This document shows positions 8,812-59,785 of a DNA stretch of 64,000 nt, piece by piece. The stretch lies in IMG/VR virus record IMGVR_UViG_3300021475_000011, positions 3,534-67,533 of that record; one strand, given 5' to 3'. Position numbers and translations under genes: made by a program. Under the pieces are notes generated by a model. It was not told the origin of the DNA. It did no database searches and was given only the letters and a program-made list of their open reading frames with translations. How positions within the stretch are numbered: position 1 is the first letter of the stretch; each line of letters opens with the position of its first letter. The stretch is from a virus.

Positions 8812-8874
8812 GGGTACAGCATCGCAACCTCGCGGGGGATTGTCAAGGCGGGTGACACCCTACTGGACGGATGA
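8799..8874 (-). promoter_or_regulatory. leaderless promoter with operator (8841-8857) and conserved 5' motif
   Basis: Minus strand: TCATCCGTCCAG...TTGACA-N17-GATGCT-N6-ATGACCACTTCCA. Confidence 0.75.
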
Positions 8875-8880
8875 TCTACC

Positions 8881-11890: not shown

Positions 11891-11908
11891 CCGGGCCAGC
11901 GTACAAGA

Positions 11909-13491: not shown

Positions 13492-13545
13492 GTCAACTAT
13501 GGTGACACTCGCGGGGTCAGGCTTCAAGCGCTCTGGACGAACGTA
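13479..13545 (-). promoter_or_regulatory. leaderless promoter with operator (13491-13507)
   Basis: TTCGTCCAG...TTGAAG-N17-CACCAT-N7-ATGACCACTTCCAC; TGTCA-N7-TGACA covers -10 to +1. Confidence 0.7.
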
Positions 13546-13556
13546 TGAGAACAGCA

Positions 13557-13583
13557 GCGGGGCGCCTGACCTACAGCGCCCCG
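13557..13583 (-). terminator. intrinsic terminator-like hairpin
   Basis: GCGGGGCGC/GCGCCCCGC stem downstream of the 13613 ORF. Confidence 0.55.
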
Positions 13584-13612
13584 CCGTGTTTCCCTCTCCC
13601 CCCGTCCCCCGA

Positions 13613-14232: not shown

Positions 14233-14286
14233 GTCAAGCATGGTGACACGCTCGACGCCCAACCACAACCCCTCTGGACGGACGTA
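14220..14286 (-). promoter_or_regulatory. leaderless promoter with operator (14232-14248)
   Basis: TCCGTCCAG...TTGTGG-N17-CACCAT-N7-ATGACTACTTCCAC. Confidence 0.7.
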
Positions 14287-14631
14287 CTACTCGGGCAGCT
14301 CGGGGACCTCAACCGCATAGATGTCGTCGATGGGCAGGAACATCAGCGGCTCGCCATCGACCTCGAGCACCATCCCACCGTGCTCGTACCTGACGATCTG
14401 GCCGGGCACCACGTCGAGCGGCAACTGTTCGCCGTGCTTGCCCTTGCGGGAGCCGACGGCCAGCACGATCGCGCGGCGTTCCTCTTCGCGGACGGTCGCC
14501 GGCAGGTGCAGGCCGCTCGCGCGCTGCGGCGGCGGCACGGGCTTGACGATGATCCGCGGGCCCATGACCTCGATCACGGCGCTGCCCGTCGGGCGGTCGG
14601 TGCTGGCGACGGCTGTGGTGTGCTCGCTCAT
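14287..14631 (-). CDS. groES: co-chaperonin GroES (Cpn10)-like
   Basis: MGPRIIVKP...ASGLHLP...IVLAVGS...PLDVVPGQIV...G...EVDGE...DDIYAV. Confidence 0.85.
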   Translation of the reverse strand: MSEHTTAVASTDRPTGSAVIEVMGPRIIVKPVPPPQRASGLHLPATVREEERRAIVLAVGSRKGKHGEQLPLDVVPGQIVRYEHGGMVLEVDGEPLMFLPIDDIYAVEVPELPE

Positions 14632-14744
14632 ACGATCGCGCTCCACAGGTGAACACAGCCGGCGATGGTCGCCGTGACGGCCAGCGCCGCTATGCAGCCC
14701 ACCACGACGTAGGCGAGCGCGACGCCGGCCTTCTCGCTGGTCAC
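14628..14744 (-). CDS. small membrane protein
   Basis: 38 aa with a single hydrophobic helix; coupled overlaps. Confidence 0.5.
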   Translation of the reverse strand: MTSEKAGVALAYVVVGCIAALAVTATIAGCVHLWSAIV

Positions 14745-15094
14745 GAGCGAGCGGCTTCCTCTGCCGCCTCCTTGGCGTCTTCGTGCGCGCGCTTCGCCGA
14801 CTTCAGCACCTTCGGGTCCTCCAAGTCGGCGTCCGTCAGGATGCCGTGGCACCGTGCCAGTCCGCGAGCGACGCGCATCTTTGCGTCCTCGATCGCGGTC
14901 TTGGCAAGGGCATACTCGCGGTTGCGAGCCGCGCTCAGGATCGCTCCCGAGTTGGAGAACTCGTCGAGCTTCAAGCGAAGACCCTGCTGCGTCAGCAGTT
15001 CGGTCTTGTCGAAGGCCAGCGTAAGAAGCTGGTGGACGGTGAGCGTGCCCGCCGGGCGCCGCTCGATCGGCTGGACCTGCTCGTCGTCGTTCAT
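14741..15094 (-). CDS. Acb2/Tad1-like helical hairpin protein (putative anti-defence)
   Basis: REYALAKTAIEDAKMRVARG resembles the Tad1/Acb2 RExAxAxTxxEEAxM helix; GGAGG RBS. Confidence 0.5.
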   Translation of the reverse strand: MNDDEQVQPIERRPAGTLTVHQLLTLAFDKTELLTQQGLRLKLDEFSNSGAILSAARNREYALAKTAIEDAKMRVARGLARCHGILTDADLEDPKVLKSAKRAHEDAKEAAEEAARS

Positions 15095-21316: not shown

Positions 21317-21969
21317 TCGAGCTGGCGCAGGCCACCGCTGCGAAGCTGCGCGCGGCGCGGGCGCGGCGCCTCCAACTCCGCGCGATCAACGCCGGCGAGC
21401 GCGAGCTGCTGATCCTCGATCGAGCGCCGGCGCAGCGCCAGATAGCTTTCGCGCTCCTGCGCCCGGAACGTGGCGATCCCCCCGCCGCCACGCAGCGCAT
21501 CGCGCCACGCTGCCCGCCTGGTCCTCGTCATCCACTCGTCGATCAGCGGGTGCGACCATGCGCTCGGCTTACGGATACGACTCGGCCGACACTCACAATC
21601 CGCCGTGGTCGTCGCCGCCGTGGTGGTCGTGACCTCCACGAACCCGCTGCCGTCGCAGCGCTTCAGCGGACAGTCACCCTCGAACGCCGCCGGCATCGGC
21701 AGCAGCACACGGCCTTCGACCTCGACAAGCACCTGATCCCACTCCGGGGTCGGAGACGCCAGCTCGAGCGCACGGGCCGCGATCATGCCGCCCGTCGGCG
21801 GGTGCTCACGGCCAGCGGTGGCGAAGCTCAGCACGACCGCCGTAGCGGTGTCAGCGGCGACACCCTCGACGAGCGGGAACTGCACCGCTGCCGCCTCGAC
21901 CGGGATTGGTGCGTGCGGCCACAGGCCACGCATCCGGGCGACGAGCTCGGTCCACTCGCTCGGCTTCAT
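21271..21969 (-). CDS. helicase loader/inhibitor (G39P-like) protein
   Basis: MKPSEWTELVARMRGLWP...HPPTGGMI...; follows the initiator gene; CDGSG..CEC Zn site. Confidence 0.55.
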   Translation of the reverse strand: MKPSEWTELVARMRGLWPHAPIPVEAAAVQFPLVEGVAADTATAVVLSFATAGREHPPTGGMIAARALELASPTPEWDQVLVEVEGRVLLPMPAAFEGDCPLKRCDGSGFVEVTTTTAATTTADCECRPSRIRKPSAWSHPLIDEWMTRTRRAAWRDALRGGGGIATFRAQERESYLALRRRSIEDQQLALAGVDRAELEAPRPRRAQLRSGGLRQLDTSSVQSATSPLTPV

Positions 21970-22832
21970 TCGCCGCGCGCCCGCTGCTCGTCGGCGATCC
22001 GCTGCAAGGCGTCCATGTCAGACCCCGCTCGCTCCCGCGCCGAGCCACCGGCGCGCTTGCCTTCGACCTCCTGCCTGATCTGCAAGACGAGAGGCGCCCA
22101 CTTTTCGCGGAGCTTCGGCATCGACCGGATGTTCGCTGCCCAAAAGTGGTGAGAGGTCGCCCATGTGATGACGTATTCAACCTGCCGGACAGAAGCGCCG
22201 TCAAGGTCAAGCAGCCGCCTTGCCGCATCGTGCCACTTTTTCGTGTGTGGATTCGGCCGAGGCCCACCGGCGCCCTGCGCCTCCAAGGCGTCAGCGAGCA
22301 GGTCGCAGAGCTTGGCGACCTCCGGGCGATCGACGGCGAGCTCGTCTTGATCGTGGTCGTCTTCGCCCTGGTCGCCGTCGGGCGGCACGACCGACGAAAC
22401 CCCCGCAGGGGGTAGTTCCTCTTCCCTTCCCTTCCCTTCCCTTCCCCCCTGTAGTGCTACAGGAGGACTACTGTAGTCGTCTCGTATCGACCCCTCAGCG
22501 CCGGGCGGCGGCAGCTTCGATTTGGTCGGCTTCTGGATCGCCTGGTGCTTGTTGAAGTTGGTCACATGCAGGTACTTTTGACCGCCGTGGACGTAGCGCG
22601 TGATGGCGCCCGTCGAGGCGATCAGCGAGAGCCACAGGTCCACTTCGTCGGCGGTCACGTCGTCGTCGTAGGGGAACACGTTGGACTTGACGACGTGCGG
22701 TCGGCCGCGCTGGCGGCCCTCGTCGTCCGAGTGTTGGATCAGGCCAATGAACAGCAGCCGGCAGTCGCGTGGGAGAGCGCCGATCGCCTCGTCTTCCCAC
22801 AACTCCGGCTTGATAGTCCTGATCCTCGCCAC
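21966..22832 (-). CDS. phage replication initiator protein
   Basis: ARIRTIKPELWEDE...RLLFIGL...DDEGR; GREGKGREE linker; FWAANIRSMPKLREKW. Confidence 0.85.
   Translation of the reverse strand: MARIRTIKPELWEDEAIGALPRDCRLLFIGLIQHSDDEGRQRGRPHVVKSNVFPYDDDVTADEVDLWLSLIASTGAITRYVHGGQKYLHVTNFNKHQAIQKPTKSKLPPPGAEGSIRDDYSSPPVALQGGREGKGREEELPPAGVSSVVPPDGDQGEDDHDQDELAVDRPEVAKLCDLLADALEAQGAGGPRPNPHTKKWHDAARRLLDLDGASVRQVEYVITWATSHHFWAANIRSMPKLREKWAPLVLQIRQEVEGKRAGGSARERAGSDMDALQRIADEQRARGE
22417..22478. repeat. (CTTCC)n tract plus two short palindromes; candidate origin
   Basis: CTTCC tandem repeats, then CCTGTAGtgCTACAGG and GACTACtGTAGTC inside the initiator linker. Confidence 0.4.
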
Positions 22833-22971
22833 CGCTGCTCCCTCGTCCTGCGAGGCGATGGCGTCCGTCTCACCGGATAGCTTCTCGTGCTCGCAACTCT
22901 GATCGGTGGCGAAACCTAGCGCGCGGCGTGGACACGTTCCCGTCGCGCGCTGCTTGTTCCGGGGTTTTTCT

Positions 22972-23214
22972 TCAGGCGGCCACGCGCTCGTCAAGCAGCT
23001 CGTAGAGCGCCTGACGGCTGATCCCGAGGCGACGTGCAGCCTCAGTGATCGTGACGGCCTCCTTGTCGTGCGGGTCGGCCTGCGCCTTCACCTGCTTGAC
23101 CACTTCGCGGGTAAGCTCCTGCAACGCCGCGTCGTTCTCGTCTCGCAGTTCACGGCGGACCCCGATCCGGTCGAGCTGCTGTCGTAGGTCTACTGCGGCC
23201 ACGGTGCTCTCCAC
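22972..23214 (-). CDS. small HTH protein (Cro-like)
   Basis: TITEAARRLGISRQALYELLD; first gene of the replication operon. Confidence 0.75.
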   Translation of the reverse strand: MESTVAAVDLRQQLDRIGVRRELRDENDAALQELTREVVKQVKAQADPHDKEAVTITEAARRLGISRQALYELLDERVAA

Positions 23215-23229
23215 TGTCGGGTTACTTGT

Positions 23230-23300
23230 CGTCCTCCATCTTGACAGGTCCAGCGGCGGCGTCGCCCTGGTTGACAGTCCATCCGGCGCGCAGGCTACCG
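23230..23300. promoter_or_regulatory. divergent control region with two degenerate operators
   Basis: CGTCC-N7-TGACA (23230-23246) and CGTCG-N7-TGACA (23260-23276); two TTGACA hexamers on the plus strand. Confidence 0.5.
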
Positions 23301-23311
23301 TCGGGATACCA

Positions 23312-23563
23312 GTGTCCGACTCGATCTACGACGCACCGAATCCTGACGCGCCCGAGCAGCAGCCGGCCTTCGTCCTACAGCGCCCGCCCGGCCAGCGCTC
23401 GAACCTCGCGCATCTGCTGTGGGCCACGCTCGTCGCCGTGCTGCTGTTCTTCGCGCTGTGCTCGGCCGTCGCCGGCGGCGCGCTGCTCGGCGGTGTCGGC
23501 GGCGCGCTGCTCGCGCTCGCGGTGAGCCTCGCCTACGTTGCGCACCTGATCGACTCAGCCTGA
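23312..23563 (+). CDS. small membrane protein (2 TM)
   Basis: Hydrophobic LLWATLVAVLLFFAL...GALLALAVSLAYV. Confidence 0.6.
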   Translation: MSDSIYDAPNPDAPEQQPAFVLQRPPGQRSNLAHLLWATLVAVLLFFALCSAVAGGALLGGVGGALLALAVSLAYVAHLIDSA

Positions 23564-23565
23564 CC

Positions 23566-23985
23566 GTGCTCGAGCTGGTCCTGCCGTTCAAGCCCGTGCC
23601 CTGCGAGCGCGCGCGATCGAACCGTGGGATCGTCCACGACACGCCACGCAACCGCGCTGTGAAGGCCCACATCGCGCGGCTGTGGCAGATCACCCACCAC
23701 GGCGTCTCGCCGATCCCAGCGGGCCGCCCTGTGATGCTGACCCTCGACTTCAGGTTCGAGCGCCCGGCAAAGCATTGGGTCGCCGGGCGCAAGGGCGGCG
23801 AGCTCCGCGCCGACGCGCCGCGCTGGCACACGAACAAGCCCGACGCGGACAACCTCGAAAAGCTCGTGAAGGACGGCCTGAACAAGATCGCGTGGGCCGA
23901 CGACGCGCAGGTCGCGGTCGTGCGCAAGCAGAAGACGTGGACCGCCGGCGAGAGCTGCACCATCCTGACGGTGCGCGAGCTGTAG
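23566..23985 (+). CDS. rusA: RusA family Holliday junction resolvase
   Basis: KPDADNLEKLVKDGLNKIAWADDAQV. Confidence 0.92.
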   Translation: MLELVLPFKPVPCERARSNRGIVHDTPRNRAVKAHIARLWQITHHGVSPIPAGRPVMLTLDFRFERPAKHWVAGRKGGELRADAPRWHTNKPDADNLEKLVKDGLNKIAWADDAQVAVVRKQKTWTAGESCTILTVREL

Positions 23986-23987
23986 GT

Positions 23988-24050
23988 GCGCGGCGGGCGG
24001 TCAGGGGATGAGGGAGAACGCCCGCCGCGCGGCTCACCGTGGGGATGAGC
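23988..24050 (-). ncRNA. candidate two-hairpin C-rich sRNA (6C-like architecture)
   Basis: Extended -10 TGcTACCTT (24058-24066); hairpins GCTCATC-CCCAC-GGTGAGC and a 12-bp stem with loop TTCTCCCTCATCCCCTGAC. Confidence 0.45.
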
Positions 24051-24078
24051 GCCGCCGAAGGTAGCACCACGAACGAGC

Positions 24079-24149
24079 GCGGCCGACGCCTCGATCGAGA
24101 AGCGCCGGCCGCAAGGGAGGAGGGGAGGGGTGCTGCTTGCGAGTCCCCG
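24079..24149 (-). ncRNA. candidate anti-SD-like sRNA or lysin terminator
   Basis: -10 TACGAT (24156-24161); CCCCTCCCCTCCTCCCTT followed by a 14-bp hairpin (24079-24112). Confidence 0.4.
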
Positions 24150-24174
24150 CCGGTGATCGTACTCGCTCGGGCGG

Positions 24175-24834
24175 CTACCCCGTGAGCGCCTTCAGCGCGT
24201 CGAACCGCGCCTGCCTGTTGAGGATGTGCCAGCCGTTGCGCTGCGACTTCGCTACCTTCTCGATCGCTTCGGCGCGCGCGATCATCGTCCGCTTCAGCAC
24301 CACGCGCCGGCGGTGAGCAGCGAGCGAACGGTGCCCGCGCAATGTCTCCCACTCCCGGCGCCAGCGCTGCTCGTCAGCGGGCACGTAGGGCGGCTTGGCG
24401 ACCGCCGACAGGAAGACCCTGCGCTCGGCCTCGCGCCTGATCTTCAGCCCTTCCACGACCTCGCCGCCAGCGTGGTCGTAGGCGAGCATCGAGTTGGCCG
24501 CGGCCAGCCAGTTCCGGGCGCGCAGCTCGGCGCCGATCGTCGTGCCCTGGAAGATGCCAGCGCCGAGGTTCCATGTGAACGAGCACAGCGCGTCCCACTG
24601 ATCCTGATTCAGCTCGACGCCGAGCGCCCGGATCGACGGCTCGTAGTAGCGCTCGATGCGGGCCTTCAGGTTGGTGCTGCCCTGCGTCACGGTGATCGCC
24701 GGCGAGCCGCTGTGGATGCCTTCCGTTTCGCCGAAGCCGCGCGTCCACACGCCGCCGAGCGAGTCCCAATAGGGCTTCGACGAGAACCCCTCGAAGCGCT
24801 CGATCAGGAGTAGTCCTGCGGGGCTGATGTGCAT
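24175..24834 (-). CDS. GH24 phage lysozyme (endolysin)
   Basis: LIERFEG...YWDSLGGVWTRGFGET, NQDQWDALCSFTWNLG, GLKIRREAER; basic C-terminal tail. Confidence 0.93.
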   Translation of the reverse strand: MHISPAGLLLIERFEGFSSKPYWDSLGGVWTRGFGETEGIHSGSPAITVTQGSTNLKARIERYYEPSIRALGVELNQDQWDALCSFTWNLGAGIFQGTTIGAELRARNWLAAANSMLAYDHAGGEVVEGLKIRREAERRVFLSAVAKPPYVPADEQRWRREWETLRGHRSLAAHRRRVVLKRTMIARAEAIEKVAKSQRNGWHILNRQARFDALKALTG

Positions 24835-24839
24835 GGGCC

Positions 24840-25298
24840 TCAGCTCCCCTCAGCGACGGTGCCCGCTGGCGTGGCGCCCGGCCCGAACATGGGGCCCGCG
24901 GCTGCCTCCGCCTGTGCGGGCGCGAGCGGCTGCGCACCGTCCGGTGTGATCGCCGTCGCGGGCTTCTGCGAGAGCGTGCCCGCGAGCTGCACGCCGTCAG
25001 CGATCGTCTGCTCGACCTCGCCGGCGGCAGCGGCGGGCAGAGGGTTGAACGGGATCGGCGCTTCGATGCCGGCGCCCTGCTGCAACGCCGTGACCTTCAG
25101 CACCGTGCGGCTGGCGATGTGCGCCGCCGACAGAGCACCGGCGACGATCGCGGCCTCCTTCGGCGGGAGCTTCGACGGATCGACGAGCGCGCCGGCGGCG
25201 AGCGCGAGGTTCGACACCCACACGAGGATGCCCTCGCTCGTGCGGATCGCCTTCGCCAGAGGCGCGCTCACTTTGGGGATGTTCAAGAAGCTAGGCAT
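24840..25298 (-). CDS. putative holin
   Basis: Two hydrophobic segments (RTSEGILVWVSNLALAAG; AAIVAGALSAAHIASR); lies between two lysins. Confidence 0.55.
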   Translation of the reverse strand: MPSFLNIPKVSAPLAKAIRTSEGILVWVSNLALAAGALVDPSKLPPKEAAIVAGALSAAHIASRTVLKVTALQQGAGIEAPIPFNPLPAAAAGEVEQTIADGVQLAGTLSQKPATAITPDGAQPLAPAQAEAAAGPMFGPGATPAGTVAEGS

Positions 25299-25998
25299 GT
25301 GCGTGTGCCCTCCAATACGCGAGGCTGACCCGAATCTGCTGCCAGGTGTGCGCGGCCACCACGCCGTCGGGGTGCTGGTGGTGGTCCTTCTGGAACTGCG
25401 CAACGACCCGCACCACGTCGTCGCTGTAAACGACGTGGTGGTGTGACAGGTAAGGCTTGTGCGTGACGGGCGAGTGAATCGTCATCAGCGCGCCCGTCAG
25501 GTGAATGACGCCCTCACCCTTCGCGCCGGCGTGCAGCACCGGGTAGGGGTTCTCGTCGGCGTGCGGGTAGGTGTGAAAGTTCACATGCTGCGCCTCGCCG
25601 CTCTCGCCGGGGTACGTCAGCGTCACGATGTAGCCGAGCTTGCGGGCCTCGGCGTTGAAGGCCGGGCTGTTCTGCGTGTCGATGCCGCGCTGCCACGGCA
25701 GCAGCTCGCCGCCGACCGGGACGTGCGGGTAGGCCACGCCGTCGTTGCGCCGGCAATGCGTCGTGCGATCGACGGGGTTGGCCGGGCCGTAGCCGGGCAC
25801 GCCGCGCGCGTGCAGGTCGATGACCTCCTGCTGCGTGTGCAGCCCGAGCTCGTGCAGCAGCCCGGCGGCCTCCTCGTCCCGCGCGTGGCTGTTGATGCCG
25901 ACGCCCGACATGCGGCTGATGTGCGCGACGATCGGCCCAAACTCGGGCTCGCCGACGAACCGCGTGCCGTTGGCTCCTTCGCAGATGATGAACTTCAT
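25291..25998 (-). CDS. endolysin: M15-like Zn peptidase + PG-binding domain
   Basis: PANP...TH...GID...EAQH; C-terminal LHAGAKGEGV...VAQFQKDH...PDGVVAAHTW (PG_binding_1-like); TACACT -10 at 26030-26035. Confidence 0.72.
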   Translation of the reverse strand: MKFIICEGANGTRFVGEPEFGPIVAHISRMSGVGINSHARDEEAAGLLHELGLHTQQEVIDLHARGVPGYGPANPVDRTTHCRRNDGVAYPHVPVGGELLPWQRGIDTQNSPAFNAEARKLGYIVTLTYPGESGEAQHVNFHTYPHADENPYPVLHAGAKGEGVIHLTGALMTIHSPVTHKPYLSHHHVVYSDDVVRVVAQFQKDHHQHPDGVVAAHTWQQIRVSLAYWRAHAHA

Positions 25999-26058
25999 GG
26001 GGGCTTCTCCCTTGCTCGTTGACCGGCCGAGTGTACGCCCGCCGGCGGTCGCTCGCGC

Positions 26059-48512: not shown

Positions 48513-49814
48513 TCAGCCTATCGGAGCGGTCGCGGTGGCGGGCGGGAGCGCTGCCTGCTCGATGATCGTGCTGTGGCTCTCGCCATCGCCGGCGCTCGCG
48601 GGCGCATCGGGGAGCTGGTCGAGGATCGACTTCAACGTCGCCTGCGCCTGCGCCACCTGCTCCATCGCGTCGCGGATCGTCTTCTCGTTCGACTTCGAGA
48701 GGACCCGTCCGGCCTTCATCACGACCTGCGCGCCCTTGGCCTTGCTCATGGCCGTGGTCACGGCCTCCAAGCGCGCGAGCGGCGACTGCACAGCCTTCGC
48801 GCGCTCGAACTCGTCGAAGTCCGGGGCTTCCGCGCCAGCGGCCTTGTAGACGGCGGCCAGCATCCGGTAGCGCTCCTCGAGGTCGGGCTTCTTCATCCCG
48901 ACGAGCTCGGGGTCGCTCAGCTCGGCGATCCCCGTCACCTGCTCCATCTGCTCGATGACCGAAGGCGTCAGGTGGGCCTTCACCACGTCGAGGCCCTTGA
49001 TCGCCTTCACGGCCACGGTGAAGATGCTCGTCTCGTTCGCGGGGATCGACACGACGCTTATCTCGCACAGTTCGACCTTGACGATGACGGGCGACTCAAG
49101 GTCCGAGTCCCACATCAGCGTCATGTAGCCGCCGATCGAGAACGTGCGGACGATGCCCTGCGCCATCTTGTTGTACGCCAGGTGCAGCCACGCCGGCTCG
49201 TTTTCAGCGGGCTTCGGGATGACCGCTTCGATGTAGAGGCCGGTGTCGTCCGTCTCCGCCTTCGTGACGCTGCCGAACGGGCAGTCCTGATCGTGCTGCC
49301 ACAGCATGATCGGGTTGTTCTTCAGGTACGCTTCGAGCGACCCGTCGAAGGCTTCGGGATGGATGCACTCCCCGTCGCGGTCGATGCCCCACGTCGAGGC
49401 ATAGCCGCTGATTACGAGGTCGCCCTTGCTCGGGCTGAGCTGCTTTGTGAACGGCACATCGACGCGGAACTCCTTGCGTTCCGTGCGCTTGCCGTCCGGC
49501 ACCGGCGCCGTCTTCACGCTGTCCGGCGGGTCGGTCCCGATGTCGTGGTAGGCCGAGCGGAGCTTGCCCTTCGCCGCGTTGATCGCGGTGTCGCAGGCAT
49601 CCGTCACGCTCGACAGGCGCCCGGCCGCGGCGGCGACGCCTTTGCTGTTGATGTCGCCGTTCGGTTCCTTGAACGGCAGCGAGCAGCGCTCCTTCGGCGG
49701 CTTGTCCTCCCACTCGGTCGAGCAATTCTTACGATCGAGGGCGCACGCTGCCTCCCACTCTGCGTCGGTGTAACGGCTGGCCGAGCCGTCCCACGCTGTA
49801 TCGACGACAGTCAC
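48513..49814 (-). CDS. HK97-family prohead protease with N-terminal extension
   Basis: ISGYASTWGIDRDGE, MLWQHD, FSIGG, EISVVSIPAN; leaderless TAAGGT-N7-GTG. Confidence 0.92.
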   Translation of the reverse strand: MTVVDTAWDGSASRYTDAEWEAACALDRKNCSTEWEDKPPKERCSLPFKEPNGDINSKGVAAAAGRLSSVTDACDTAINAAKGKLRSAYHDIGTDPPDSVKTAPVPDGKRTERKEFRVDVPFTKQLSPSKGDLVISGYASTWGIDRDGECIHPEAFDGSLEAYLKNNPIMLWQHDQDCPFGSVTKAETDDTGLYIEAVIPKPAENEPAWLHLAYNKMAQGIVRTFSIGGYMTLMWDSDLESPVIVKVELCEISVVSIPANETSIFTVAVKAIKGLDVVKAHLTPSVIEQMEQVTGIAELSDPELVGMKKPDLEERYRMLAAVYKAAGAEAPDFDEFERAKAVQSPLARLEAVTTAMSKAKGAQVVMKAGRVLSKSNEKTIRDAMEQVAQAQATLKSILDQLPDAPASAGDGESHSTIIEQAALPPATATAPIG

Positions 49815-49851
49815 GGCCGCGACCTTACACCCTCGGCGCGACGGATGGCGC

Positions 49852-50941: not shown

Positions 50942-53560
50942 TTACCCGCCACCTTCGACGGCTTCACCCATGCTGCCGTCGCTCGTGACCGGCGCGAACG
51001 ACCTCACACAGTTGGGGTGCGCCACGGGTTCTAGTTCGGCCTGCTCCATGCTCCACGTCGAGCCGTTGGCCGCTGCACACTCCTCGTCCGTCTCACCGTC
51101 GAGCACGTAGACCTGACTCAGCCCGGCTTCGCGGTACGCCGCCGTGGTGGCGCCGTTGAAGATGAAAGCGCTCTCTGTCCGCGCGATCGTCTCAGCTCGA
51201 GCATCGCTCGCGCCGAAGACGCCCTGCACACCGGGGAAGTTCTCCTTCGGGACTCCCTGCGCGATCTGCCGCACGCTGTAGCCACGTTCAGCGGCCACGC
51301 TCAGGATTTCGCCGAGCGCCGAGCGCGTGGTGTCGTTGATGCGCGTCACCTTCGCCGCGATCTGCTGGCGCTGGCGCTGCACGTAGGGGTTCGCCTCTTC
51401 CCACTTCGAGTCGGTCCCGACGATGCCGGCGGGCACGCTGATCGCCTGCTGGCCGAACGTGTCGATCGCGGGCAGGTACAGGTCGTGGAGAAGCTGATCC
51501 TCTTGTTCGGTGGGGAACAGCGATTCGTCGCTGATGTCCTTCCGGCTGAGCAGCCCGGTCGGTGTGCCGTGCGCGGTCTTCGTCGGCCCGTAAGCGCCGA
51601 GCCGCGCGAGGATGCGCGCCTGCTGCCCGTCGAGGTACGCCTTGAACAGCGGCTTCAGGAGGTCAACGCCCTTCTGGATCGTCGCGGGGTGAGCGTCGAA
51701 AAGCTGCTGCACATGACGGTGCTCGACGTTCGGCGGCAAGCTGCTGGCCGCGGGCATCGTCAGGTTCTCCATCGGGCCAGAGCCAGCACCCACAACGCCC
51801 TTCATCACCGCGTCGTCGCTGGCCTTCAGCACGGACATGACGCCGGCCGCGAGCTTCACGGGCGGCAGCGTCGCGCCAGGTGGCGGCGGGAGCTCGCCCA
51901 CGATGCGGCGGAGCTGCGCGACCTCGGCGTTCACGCGCTCCTCCTGCGCCGCCTTGACGTAGGGCTGCCAAACCTCGGGCAGCGCGGCGGCCTTGTCGGC
52001 ATCGGGCGAGCCAAGCAGCTCCGCGATCGTCTCGCGCATCACGAGCTCGGCCGACTTCTTGCCGCCCGTTTCTTCGCCGGCGGGCTCGCTCGGCGCGCCG
52101 TTCGGCGGCTCGTCGTCGCTCGCACCGCGGGGCTGATCCTCGTCGCCCGGTTCGTCCTCGTTGCCCTCGCTGCCTTCCTCGTCGTCGCCGCTGCCAATCG
52201 TGGTGATCGTGTCGTCCTCGTCGTCTTCCTCGCCTTCGGGGTCTTCGAGCGTGGTGTCCGGCCCGAGCTGCACGGTTTTCGCCTCCCACAGCTTGCGGGC
52301 GAAGATGACCTTGTTCAAGATCAGCGGCTCGTTCGCCCACTCCTCGTCAACTTCCGGTAGGCCCTGCATGTCGAGCATCTGATTGATCGTCGTGCCGGTG
52401 CCGGCGCTCTTGGCAGCCCGTTCGATCTTGACGCTGTGAGGCTCGGCGTAGGCCACGTCCACGTCGAACGCGATGTCGCCCCACCGCGAGGTCAGTTCGA
52501 GCGTCATCATCTGCTCGAAGTCCTTGACGCGGGGGTCCATCGTCTTGTCCGCGAACGTGAATTGCGCCTCTTCCATCTTGTAGTTCGCGTTTTCCATCGT
52601 GCCGCCCAGCAGCGGGTCAGGCACGCCGAAGCCCTTGAGGATGCGGTCCTTGCTCAGCCCGGCCAGCTCCACGACGCCGGCGGCGGCGGGCGCCTGTGTG
52701 ATCGGCTTGTAGTCCATCGCCTTCTCCGCGAGCAGCACCTTGAAGGCGTTGGCCGCGCCGCCGTACTCGCTGTTGAACTGATCTTGCAGCCGCTCGAAAA
52801 CGTGGTCCGGCATGTTCGAGTCGATCGTGAGCACGCCGCCGATCCGCGCGCCGTTCTGGAAGAAGCCGATCACATGGTCCTGCACGCCAATCTCCAAATC
52901 CATCTCTCGGATCAGCGCCTCAACGGTCCCCATCCCGTAGATCGGGTCGAGCGGGTTGTCAGTTCGGAAGTGGATTATTTCGTCGAGCGTGTAGGGGATT
53001 CGCTTGCCCTGAATCTCGTACACGTAGCCCTTCTTCACGCCGCTGTTGTCGGTCACGATCCGCACGCGCTCGGGCTGCAAGCGGTAGAGCCGCTGCGGCT
53101 GGCCGAGCAGGTTCATCCCGTCCTCGTACCAATAGCTATTGCCGACGAGCTCAAGGTCGGTCTGCATCGCCCGCGCCATGCGCGCGTAGGTCTGCGACTC
53201 GTTCGGGAACCTGACCACTTGCAGCAGGTCCGCCGGGACCTTCTTCTCGTCGATCGGCTCGTCGGTCAGGCTGTTGACGAACTGATGCGGGTAGCGGCTC
53301 AGGCTGTTGGCTATCAGCTTCGTGCAGGCGTACACCCACGTCACGCTGTTGCCCTGCCCGCCGTAGGTCTGCTCGGCGCGCAGCGACCGTTGCAGCCGGT
53401 TATACATCGAGCCGAACAGGCCGCTCGGGTTCGACCATCCGATCTGCGAGTAAGGCGCGCCCTGGTAAGGCGTCACCTGCTTGGACAGTTCCTCGTTCGT
53501 CAGAGCACCGATGCCGGCCTTCGGGTTATCGCCCGTCGAAAGTCGGACAAGTCCCCTCAT
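50942..53560 (-). CDS. portal protein fused to MuF (phage_Mu_F) head morphogenesis domain
   Basis: VYACTKLIA, LVGNSY, IIHFR..NP...YG, FGVP; C-terminal RAETIARTES...HPNCVRS; promoter GTGAAA-N17-TACGAT (53593-53621). Confidence 0.92.
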   Translation of the reverse strand: MRGLVRLSTGDNPKAGIGALTNEELSKQVTPYQGAPYSQIGWSNPSGLFGSMYNRLQRSLRAEQTYGGQGNSVTWVYACTKLIANSLSRYPHQFVNSLTDEPIDEKKVPADLLQVVRFPNESQTYARMARAMQTDLELVGNSYWYEDGMNLLGQPQRLYRLQPERVRIVTDNSGVKKGYVYEIQGKRIPYTLDEIIHFRTDNPLDPIYGMGTVEALIREMDLEIGVQDHVIGFFQNGARIGGVLTIDSNMPDHVFERLQDQFNSEYGGAANAFKVLLAEKAMDYKPITQAPAAAGVVELAGLSKDRILKGFGVPDPLLGGTMENANYKMEEAQFTFADKTMDPRVKDFEQMMTLELTSRWGDIAFDVDVAYAEPHSVKIERAAKSAGTGTTINQMLDMQGLPEVDEEWANEPLILNKVIFARKLWEAKTVQLGPDTTLEDPEGEEDDEDDTITTIGSGDDEEGSEGNEDEPGDEDQPRGASDDEPPNGAPSEPAGEETGGKKSAELVMRETIAELLGSPDADKAAALPEVWQPYVKAAQEERVNAEVAQLRRIVGELPPPPGATLPPVKLAAGVMSVLKASDDAVMKGVVGAGSGPMENLTMPAASSLPPNVEHRHVQQLFDAHPATIQKGVDLLKPLFKAYLDGQQARILARLGAYGPTKTAHGTPTGLLSRKDISDESLFPTEQEDQLLHDLYLPAIDTFGQQAISVPAGIVGTDSKWEEANPYVQRQRQQIAAKVTRINDTTRSALGEILSVAAERGYSVRQIAQGVPKENFPGVQGVFGASDARAETIARTESAFIFNGATTAAYREAGLSQVYVLDGETDEECAAANGSTWSMEQAELEPVAHPNCVRSFAPVTSDGSMGEAVEGGG

Positions 53561-59768: not shown

Positions 59769-59785
59769 TGTCAGGTGAGTTTACA
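59769..59785. promoter_or_regulatory. TGTCA-N7-TTACA operator over a TAAACT -10 box
   Basis: TGTCAggtgagtTTACA, near-identical to the copy at 63514. Confidence 0.65.

Follow-up and report, generated by a model that had tools for sequence, protein, structure and literature searches.

What happens to RNA in the short gap between the convergent rusA and lysozyme genes of this phage? An earlier, sequence-only reading of the locus had proposed that the gap encodes two tandem C-rich small RNAs, similar in architecture to the actinobacterial 6C RNA, that would block Shine-Dalgarno-led translation while leaderless phage messages escape. Convergent genes also have to be separated by sites at which transcription stops, and a hairpin-rich gap of this kind might be just that. 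We analysed the locus in a window of 64,000 nt, the whole stretch of DNA considered here, which belongs to a 67.5-kb IMG/VR virus record with a G+C content of 68%.

A gap between converging units

The gap measures 189 nt (23986-24174), and it is here that a rightward rusA unit meets a long leftward late operon (Table 1). From 63 kb down to 24175, nearly all frames with coding-type GC3 are carried by the minus strand, among them the portal gene (50942-53560), a capsid-like protein, a 1911-codon frame of tape-measure size, tail genes and three lysis genes. These last form a cassette of a 235-aa peptidoglycan-binding protein, a 187-aa frame with no family, and the GH24 lysozyme. To the left of rusA a new leftward unit runs from 23214, with an HTH protein and a replication initiator. 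Given these gene orders and directions, the late operon and the unit of rusA converge on the gap, which lies just before the early and replication genes.

The replication initiator (21966-22994) is O-like (phrog_2149, E 1.7e-37). Of the 479 phage records that match it, 348 come from phages that infect Mycobacterium, Gordonia, Streptomyces or Arthrobacter, which makes an actinobacterial host probable; capsid and portal matches are about 25-31% identical and scattered over many host groups. Within the initiator gene, at 22416-22475 on the minus strand, the linker that joins its two domains contains a 35-nt purine run of GGGAA repeats, adjoined by an inverted repeat (CTGTAG..CTACAG) and by a TACAGT box. 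The replication origin of lambda sits inside its O gene, and by analogy this element is a candidate origin. Elsewhere in the window, a 171-aa minus-strand frame at 14287-14802 contains a Cpn10 (GroES-like) domain (PF00166, E 1.4e-9) and may encode a phage co-chaperonin.

Table 1. Features of the rusA-lysozyme gap and of the neighbouring genes, in window coordinates.
Feature	Position	Strand	Basis or remark
RusA-like Holliday junction resolvase gene, convergent with the lysozyme gene	23566..23985	+	PF05866 E 1.4e-16; phrog_140 E 8.7e-23
rusA stop codon TAG	23983-23985	+	Read from sequence
HP3, 12-bp perfect stem, 19-nt loop	24030->23988	both	3 nt past rusA stop; both strands equally stable
HP2, 7-bp hairpin, loop CCCAC	24050->24032	-	Fold; relative in DNA run X5 lacks 3 bases here
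TGCTACCTT, extended -10-like box	24066->24058	-	In moderately U-rich tail of HP1; L117 has TATGCT 12 nt past HP1
HP1, 14-bp hairpin with two wobble pairs	24112->24079	-	Likely main terminator of late operon; conserved in L117
UCCUCCCU within C/U tract, predicted single-stranded, contains CCUCC	24121->24114	-	Fold prediction
C/U tract CCCCUCCCCUCCUCCCUU, 18 nt	24130->24113	-	Core CCUCCUCCCU identical in L117
Small 5' hairpin of unit 1, GGGGA/UCCCC pairing	24122..24148	-	Fold of 24150->24070; L117 hairpin at same place differs in sequence
TACGAT, -10-like hexamer	24161->24156	-	13 nt past lysozyme stop; L117 has TATGCT 16 nt past its stop; no -35 match
Lysozyme stop codon	24175-24177	-	Read from sequence
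GH24 phage lysozyme gene, last of leftward late/lysis operon	24175..24834	-	PF00959 E 1.9e-28; 67% identical to L117 lysozyme
GCAAGGGAG, ribosome-binding region of first lysis gene	26007..26015	-	Perfect 9-nt complement of CUCCCUUGC at tract/HP1 junction
TACACT, candidate -10 of lysis-cassette promoter	26030..26035	-	L117 has TACGCT with same 12-nt spacing to GAGCAAGGGAGA; spacer sequence differs

Strand-biased structure in the gap

In DNA this rich in G+C, strong hairpins are by themselves nothing unusual, even inside genes, and we compared the fold of the gap with shuffled sequences on both strands. Read as the lysozyme-strand RNA, the whole gap folds to -111 kcal/mol with a z of -5.72, and none of 200 shuffles was as good; read as the rusA-strand RNA it has a z of -0.80, with 39 of 200 shuffles as good. 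This difference speaks for selection of the structures on the lysozyme-strand RNA, the strand on which the earlier reading had placed its small RNAs. The strand asymmetry comes from unit 1 (the C/U tract with HP1), because the wobble pairs of HP1 turn into C.A mismatches on the other strand: HP1 folds to -30.8 kcal/mol on the minus strand and -21.9 on the plus strand, and the corresponding z values for unit 1 are -2.67 and -0.16. Unit 2 (HP2 with HP3) reaches -40.6 kcal/mol on the minus strand (z -5.97, none of 200 shuffles as good) and -40.8 on the plus strand (z -4.12).

The basic anatomy that the sequence-only reading had described, a C-rich sequence ahead of a 14-bp hairpin in unit 1 and two hairpins in unit 2 that both contain the C-rich sequence CUCAUCCCC, can be read directly from the DNA and stands. 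The pyrimidine tract of unit 1 is, at 18 nt, the longest such run on the minus strand, the next being 11 nt, although mononucleotide shuffles average 16.7; the CCUCC within it is the anti-Shine-Dalgarno core. In unit 2, CUCAUCCCC is present in HP2 (24049->24041) and in the loop of HP3 (24012->24004), a loop that holds a CCC and a CCCC run. The word GGGGATGAG has two exact copies in 64 kb, both inside the gap, against a shuffle mean of 0.54, with 12 of 100 shuffles holding two or more copies anywhere; when one mismatch was allowed there was no enrichment (18 found, 17.6 expected).

HP1 lies 63 nt past the lysozyme stop codon and is a GC-rich hairpin at the end of a transcription unit, as intrinsic terminators are. 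None of HP1, HP2 and HP3 has a U-run right after its stem, and a scan for consensus terminators found no site in the gap; across 23000-25500 the scan gave one terminator-like site, which lies outside it. The best 8-nt window after HP1 contains 4 U, and other hairpins of this phage have U-richer tails. The 25 nt before HP1 hold 15 C and 2 G. The other terminator-like hairpins of the phage are without a C tract and one has a G tract: at 13555-13612 on the minus strand, 3' of a 105-codon gene, the G-rich tract GGGGGACGGGGGGAGAGGGAAA stands directly before the hairpin and mirrors the C tract of the gap. We also observed a word, CGTCCAG, that recurs just 3' of terminator hairpins or just 5' of genes (8865-8875, 13530-13540 and 14275-14285, minus strand).

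Conservation of the tract and HP1 in a distant relative

We were interested in relatives that keep the same gene order. A DNA search with 23400-24850 gave no match among 50,697 phage records. Protein scans of viral contigs yielded two lysozyme loci and three RusA loci, the lysozyme scan of metagenome contigs seven loci and that of genome contigs six, all of them Faecousia MAGs at about 30% identity; two profile scans found 51 loci and a single locus, respectively. In viral contigs, motif scans returned 100 stretches with two copies of GGGGATGAG, 45 with the tract and the start of the stem, and at least 119 with stem and loop. As relatives these stretches were rejected, since BLAST and inspection by eye identified them as chance matches or reverse-strand ribosome-binding sites. 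Among the relatives found, only L117 is syntenic downstream of the lysozyme gene, and L006/L120, L118, L169 and L220 are not.

L117 is a metagenome contig of 2160 nt that carries the same lysis cassette of three genes; its first protein is 74% identical to ours and its lysozyme 67%. The two lysozyme coding sequences share 66% DNA identity and 49% at third codon positions, so silent sites are close to saturation. Local alignment of the downstream regions nevertheless recovers exactly the C-rich core and HP1, with 41 of 50 columns identical and a score of 49, where 500 shuffles averaged 19.3 and reached at most 31. Within HP1, the 5' arm in L117 is longer by one C and the 3' arm by one G, a compensated base-pair insertion; these one-base insertions keep the pairing and shift every reading frame. 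The inner pairs of HP1, including a G.U pair, are kept in both sequences (RNAalifold, run on the two sequences, misaligned the outer arm, and the inner pairs alone were counted), and the loop is partly kept (UUCUC.AUCGA). The predicted architecture is the same in the window and in L117: a 5' hairpin, an unpaired CCUCC tract and a terminator hairpin. The 25 nt before HP1 in L117 hold 11 C and 5 G.

These comparisons support purifying selection on the C-rich tract and hairpin of unit 1. As judged from the alignment, the tract and HP1 bear the signature of a selected RNA element, more than a stable hairpin or a plain terminator, because the sequence, loop included, is kept in a distant relative. 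Covariation across related phages had been suggested as a check on the two units, and here they part company: HP1 has its compensated insertion and its retained G.U pair, a covariation that rests on two sequences, whereas unit 2 has no counterpart in L117, the one syntenic relative, with which its C-rich loops could be compared.

Beyond the conserved block, the next unit of L117 runs for about 170 nt and contains a possible 30-codon leaderless frame whose start codon is the GTG at 1976. The stretch 1964-2160 of L117 comprises a TATGCT box, the frame and then a second copy of the series 'hairpin with UUCUCC loop, CCUUUG, TATGCT'; this second unit resembles a moron-like array 3' of the lysis genes.

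A closer relative is present in a DNA run, X5, at about 92% identity over 22837-25980. Its gap carries three indels, namely a 3-base loss in HP2, an added C in the tract (24126) and one base lost at 24152; by reading, HP2 remains a short hairpin with an all-C loop after the loss. Among the substitutions listed for X5 and a second DNA run, X3, none is common to both in the gap, and at least 14 common ones fall in 24184-24677, a weak hint in these sequences of constraint on the gap. A contig of X3 joins 23519 to 24038, skipping 518 bases with rusA and HP3; it could be a variant without rusA, although with 21 letters on one side the joint is unreliable and may be an artefact.

Candidate promoters in the gap

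Two -10-like boxes on the minus strand, at 24156 and 24058, had been noted ahead of the two units, and both are present as described. The pattern TANNNT occurs 42 times on the minus strand and 50 times on the plus strand of the 64 kb, a frequency of 0.00072 per nt per strand, from which 0.14 occurrences would be expected on either strand of the gap. Two are found there on the minus strand, and the plus strand has none (Poisson P ~0.008, the background being mostly coding sequence). Of the 42 boxes on the minus strand, many stand 7-12 nt before start codons, for example TACGCT-7-ATG at 11903, TAGGCT-7-ATG at 48520 and TAAGGT-7-GTG at 49827. A TANNNT box shortly before the start codon has been described as typical of actinobacterial leaderless transcripts (PMC4633059), and this spacing suggests that first genes of the phage are leaderless. 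Such boxes also precede starts by 7-12 nt at 59783 and 63528 (minus strand), and these two share a longer repeat, CCTGTGTAAACTC.CCTGACA.

L117 has a TATGCT at both places equivalent to the boxes of the gap. Because TANNNT is rare, because it often stands shortly before start codons elsewhere and because L117 has equivalents, the two boxes are credible candidates for -10 elements, and their earlier assignment as plausible ones gains from the use that the phage appears to make of TANNNT boxes and leaderless-looking starts. A sigma-70 scan of 23000-25500 returned no promoters, and the boxes are without a -35 match. Words resembling CTGTCAA or TTGACA, possible operators, are found repeatedly near 23230-23280, 55230 and 56925.

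Search for pairing targets

We examined the tract and the loops for complementarity to 54 start regions. Among these regions, perfect complementarity to the tract is longest at the first lysis gene, with 9 nt, followed by the lysozyme gene with 8 nt, and 9-nt complements to the tract occur in 0.19% of 12793 background windows. Ranked by duplex energy, the first lysis gene is 18th and the lysozyme gene 4th of the 54. For L117 the longest perfect complement measures 6 nt, and the energy, at -21.4, is unremarkable within that contig (mean -19.6, sd 5.6). The best match of a loop was that of HP3 to the portal start, at a background quantile of 0.0011 (54 start regions, 4 seeds). With tract and loop seeds ranked over the 54 start regions, nothing survives multiple testing, and the target prediction proposed earlier as a check of the small-RNA idea did not lend it support. 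On its complementarity, the first lysis gene is no more than a weak lead as a pairing partner of the tract. On the same strand, the best duplex of the tract is with the G tract at 13603-13574, beside another terminator (-36.5 kcal/mol); both are low-complexity runs and their pairing may be chance.

The internal late and lysis genes have Shine-Dalgarno sequences (GGAGG, AAGGAG or GGGAG) ahead of their starts. For this reason a global blocker of Shine-Dalgarno sequences would hit the phage's own genes. The claim that leaderless phage messages would escape such a blocker is therefore half sustained: the first genes do look leaderless, but the internal late and lysis genes do not have this protection.

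Occurrence in RNA libraries

Two soil metatranscriptome runs from different studies, X2 and X4, hold contigs 100% identical to the locus. The X2 contig covers 24122-24542; that of X4 covers 24021-24348, crossing the lysozyme stop codon, unit 1, the second box and HP2 and ending within HP3. Neither run has a contig on 23220-24020, which includes most of rusA, although absence of a contig does not mean silence. Contigs from RNA libraries carry no information on strand, RNA ends or single molecules, and DNA may contaminate such libraries; what they show is only that the gap occurs in RNA libraries contiguous with the lysozyme gene. This continuity fits a 3' UTR at least as well as it fits separate small RNAs. 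In both runs contig depth peaks (37.1 in X2, 5.5 in X4) on the 80-aa HTH gene with which the leftward early operon begins (22949-23219), a peak that would fit a repressor or Cro-like gene, contig depth being a poor measure.

Comparison with known RNA families

The resemblance to 6C had raised the possibility that the element belongs to this family, a membership that we set at 47 bits or more with the Rfam covariance model. Searched over the whole 67.5-kb record, the 6C model (RF01066) gave no hit at E<=10 with 12 candidates scored, a weak negative by itself, since the control search found 6C in 4 of 14 genomes and in none of them above the cut-off. 6C was also absent at E<=10 from a permissive Rfam search of 23500-24700, whose two matches were at chance level (E 5.2 and 8.8), and the proposed kinship was not upheld. 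At gathering score no Rfam family is found in the window or in L117, whose downstream region gave one chance-level match. Judged by these searches, the element is outside 6C and every curated Rfam family.

The likeness to the 6C or B11 sRNA of Actinobacteria (RF01066) consists in adjacent GC-rich hairpins that expose C runs. The gap element differs in that it is phage-borne and at an operon end, and in that the C tract of unit 1 is predicted to be a linear single strand before a terminator and not a loop. The C-rich loops of 6C are described as pairing with G-rich ribosome-binding sites without a chaperone (PMC6486639), and extra copies of 6C are reported on plasmids, not in phages (PMC9569102).

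The icaR 3' UTR of Staphylococcus aureus is similar in position, with a C-rich motif between stop codon and terminator, and reportedly it pairs with the Shine-Dalgarno region of its own mRNA. Its motif is of the UCCCC type and complementary to the ribosome-binding site of the same message (PMC3868564). In contrast to icaR, the gap belongs to an unrelated host group, and complementarity is strong in the window only and not in L117, as the sequences read.

In Firmicutes, unpaired C-rich motifs of RsaE/RoxS target Shine-Dalgarno regions; the gap has no Rfam match to this family, and architecture and host differ. Mycobacteriophages are known to produce abundant small non-coding RNAs (PMC5712189), but the cluster A phages L5, D29 and StarStuff carry theirs at the right end of the genome and in a gap of the early region, whereas the gap studied here follows the lysis genes. 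Like convergent or bidirectional intrinsic terminators, it has GC-rich hairpins between converging units, one of them 3 nt past a stop codon. Unlike them the gap is without a U-run, and its conserved loop, its tract and its strand-specific wobble pairs exceed what termination needs. A decoy of the CsrB/RsmY type had no Rfam match in the window or in L117, and unit 1 is structured on the opposite strand.

Weighing the explanations

The reading that we favour, tentatively and with slightly less than even confidence, sees the gap as a zone of convergent terminators that opens with a conserved, anti-Shine-Dalgarno-like RNA element at the 3' end of the lysis mRNA. The gap would be the transcription stop zone between the leftward late operon and the short rightward rusA unit. 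On the lysozyme strand, RNA polymerase products would carry in turn the small 5' hairpin, the single-stranded pyrimidine tract with its CCUCC, HP1 and then HP2 with HP3. We infer that HP1 would be the main terminator of the late or lysis transcript, and unit 2 is best read as a back-stop for lysozyme-strand read-through that, from the other side, would serve as the rusA terminator through HP3. The tract with HP1 probably does more than terminate: most likely it would be a regulatory 3'-end element of the lysis mRNA, and it may in addition be released, or made separately from a -10 box of its own, as a product of some 80 nt. The C-rich tract that it exposes may pair with G-rich Shine-Dalgarno regions, as the icaR 3' UTR and the 6C loops do, the best candidate target being the first lysis cistron. 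Some observations sit poorly with this account. A pure 3'-UTR model has no need of the conserved TANNNT boxes, the X5 relative carries two indels within unit 1 (24126 and 24152), and HP1 to HP3 are without the canonical U-run where other hairpins of the phage have U-richer tails.

Plain convergent terminators or insulators, acting without base pairing and with the tract kept for termination, for instance for Rho loading, are a possible though on the whole unlikely alternative. The hairpins are exactly where converging units must stop, just before the early HTH and replication operon, and the stretch before HP1 is C-rich and G-poor in both the window and L117, but it is short for a Rho site, and Rho sites usually span 60 nt or more. 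For mycobacteria, stem-loops rich in C have been put forward as an alternative kind of termination structure (PMC6486639). Against termination as the only role, the HP1 loop and the exact CCUCCUCCCU are conserved next to third codon positions near saturation, and other terminator-like hairpins of this phage manage without a C tract, one having a G tract instead. Two separate small RNAs made from their own -10 boxes (unit 1 at ~24149->24070, unit 2 at ~24051->23985) and acting in trans on G-rich ribosome-binding sites by a 6C-like mechanism seem to us rather unlikely. In their favour, the boxes are rare in the window yet present twice on the minus strand of the gap and not on the plus strand, with L117 boxes at equivalent places and a lysis-cassette box (26035) kept in L117 at identical spacing; each predicted RNA also folds compactly, unit 2 with a z of -5.97, and the precedents of 6C loops that bind ribosome-binding sites (PMC6486639) and of mycobacteriophage small RNAs (PMC5712189) point the same way. 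But the boxes match neither a -35 nor a sigma-70-type promoter, and the one after HP1 falls in the U-rich tail of a terminator, where TANNNT is likelier. In L117 the G-run that pairs with the tract is upstream of its TATGCT box, so that the fold needs read-through RNA, and the RNA-library contigs are continuous across the lysozyme stop codon and, in X4, across HP1. Unit 2, which had been proposed as a small RNA in its own right, is hard to maintain as one, having no L117 counterpart and folding equally on both strands, and there is no compelling target.

More ambitious is the idea of promoter-driven RNAs after the lysis genes of a soil actinophage that mimic the anti-Shine-Dalgarno end of 16S rRNA, unrelated to 6C in sequence and 6C-like in action, which we regard as improbable. 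A function of the rusA strand is very unlikely, whether as CsrA-type decoy loops, as an antisense-frame ribosome-binding site in AAGGGAGGAGG or as a G-run quadruplex. Unit 2 is as stable on the plus strand (-40.8 kcal/mol, z -4.12) as on the minus strand, and a TTG-initiated 59-codon frame begins 6 nt past the G-run, yet in unit 1 the wobble pairs become C.A mismatches on this strand (z -0.16), L117 has no start codon 4-12 nt past its G-run, which is reduced to GGGAGGAGG, and no decoy RNA is matched in Rfam. The quadruplex was rejected, L117 keeping only GGGAGGAGG; the decoy, which the sequence-only reading had offered as its alternative, is disfavoured by the strand asymmetry of unit 1, and CsrA is not expected in actinobacteria. 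Hardly tenable at all is a small protein encoded in the gap: open frames do cross it, one of 48 codons on the plus strand and part of one of 200 codons on the minus strand, but neither is among those that pass the GC3 filter, and the one-base indels between the window and L117 shift every frame in the conserved block.

Implications

Regulatory RNAs of phages that grow on high-GC Gram-positive bacteria are almost unexplored, and in such hosts C-rich seeds can pair with G-rich ribosome-binding sites free of a chaperone. If RNAs that mimic the 16S rRNA end were indeed made, Shine-Dalgarno-dependent translation would be damped, be it that of the host's messages or that of the lysis cistrons of the phage itself, and leaderless first genes would escape; the gap would then be a device for translational timing or takeover. 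If it is a terminator only, the element still marks the late-operon boundary of an uncultivated phage. Should the conserved module that we favour be real, it would offer a simple and testable way of tuning translation or the timing of lysis, and its pattern could be searched for in other actinophages.
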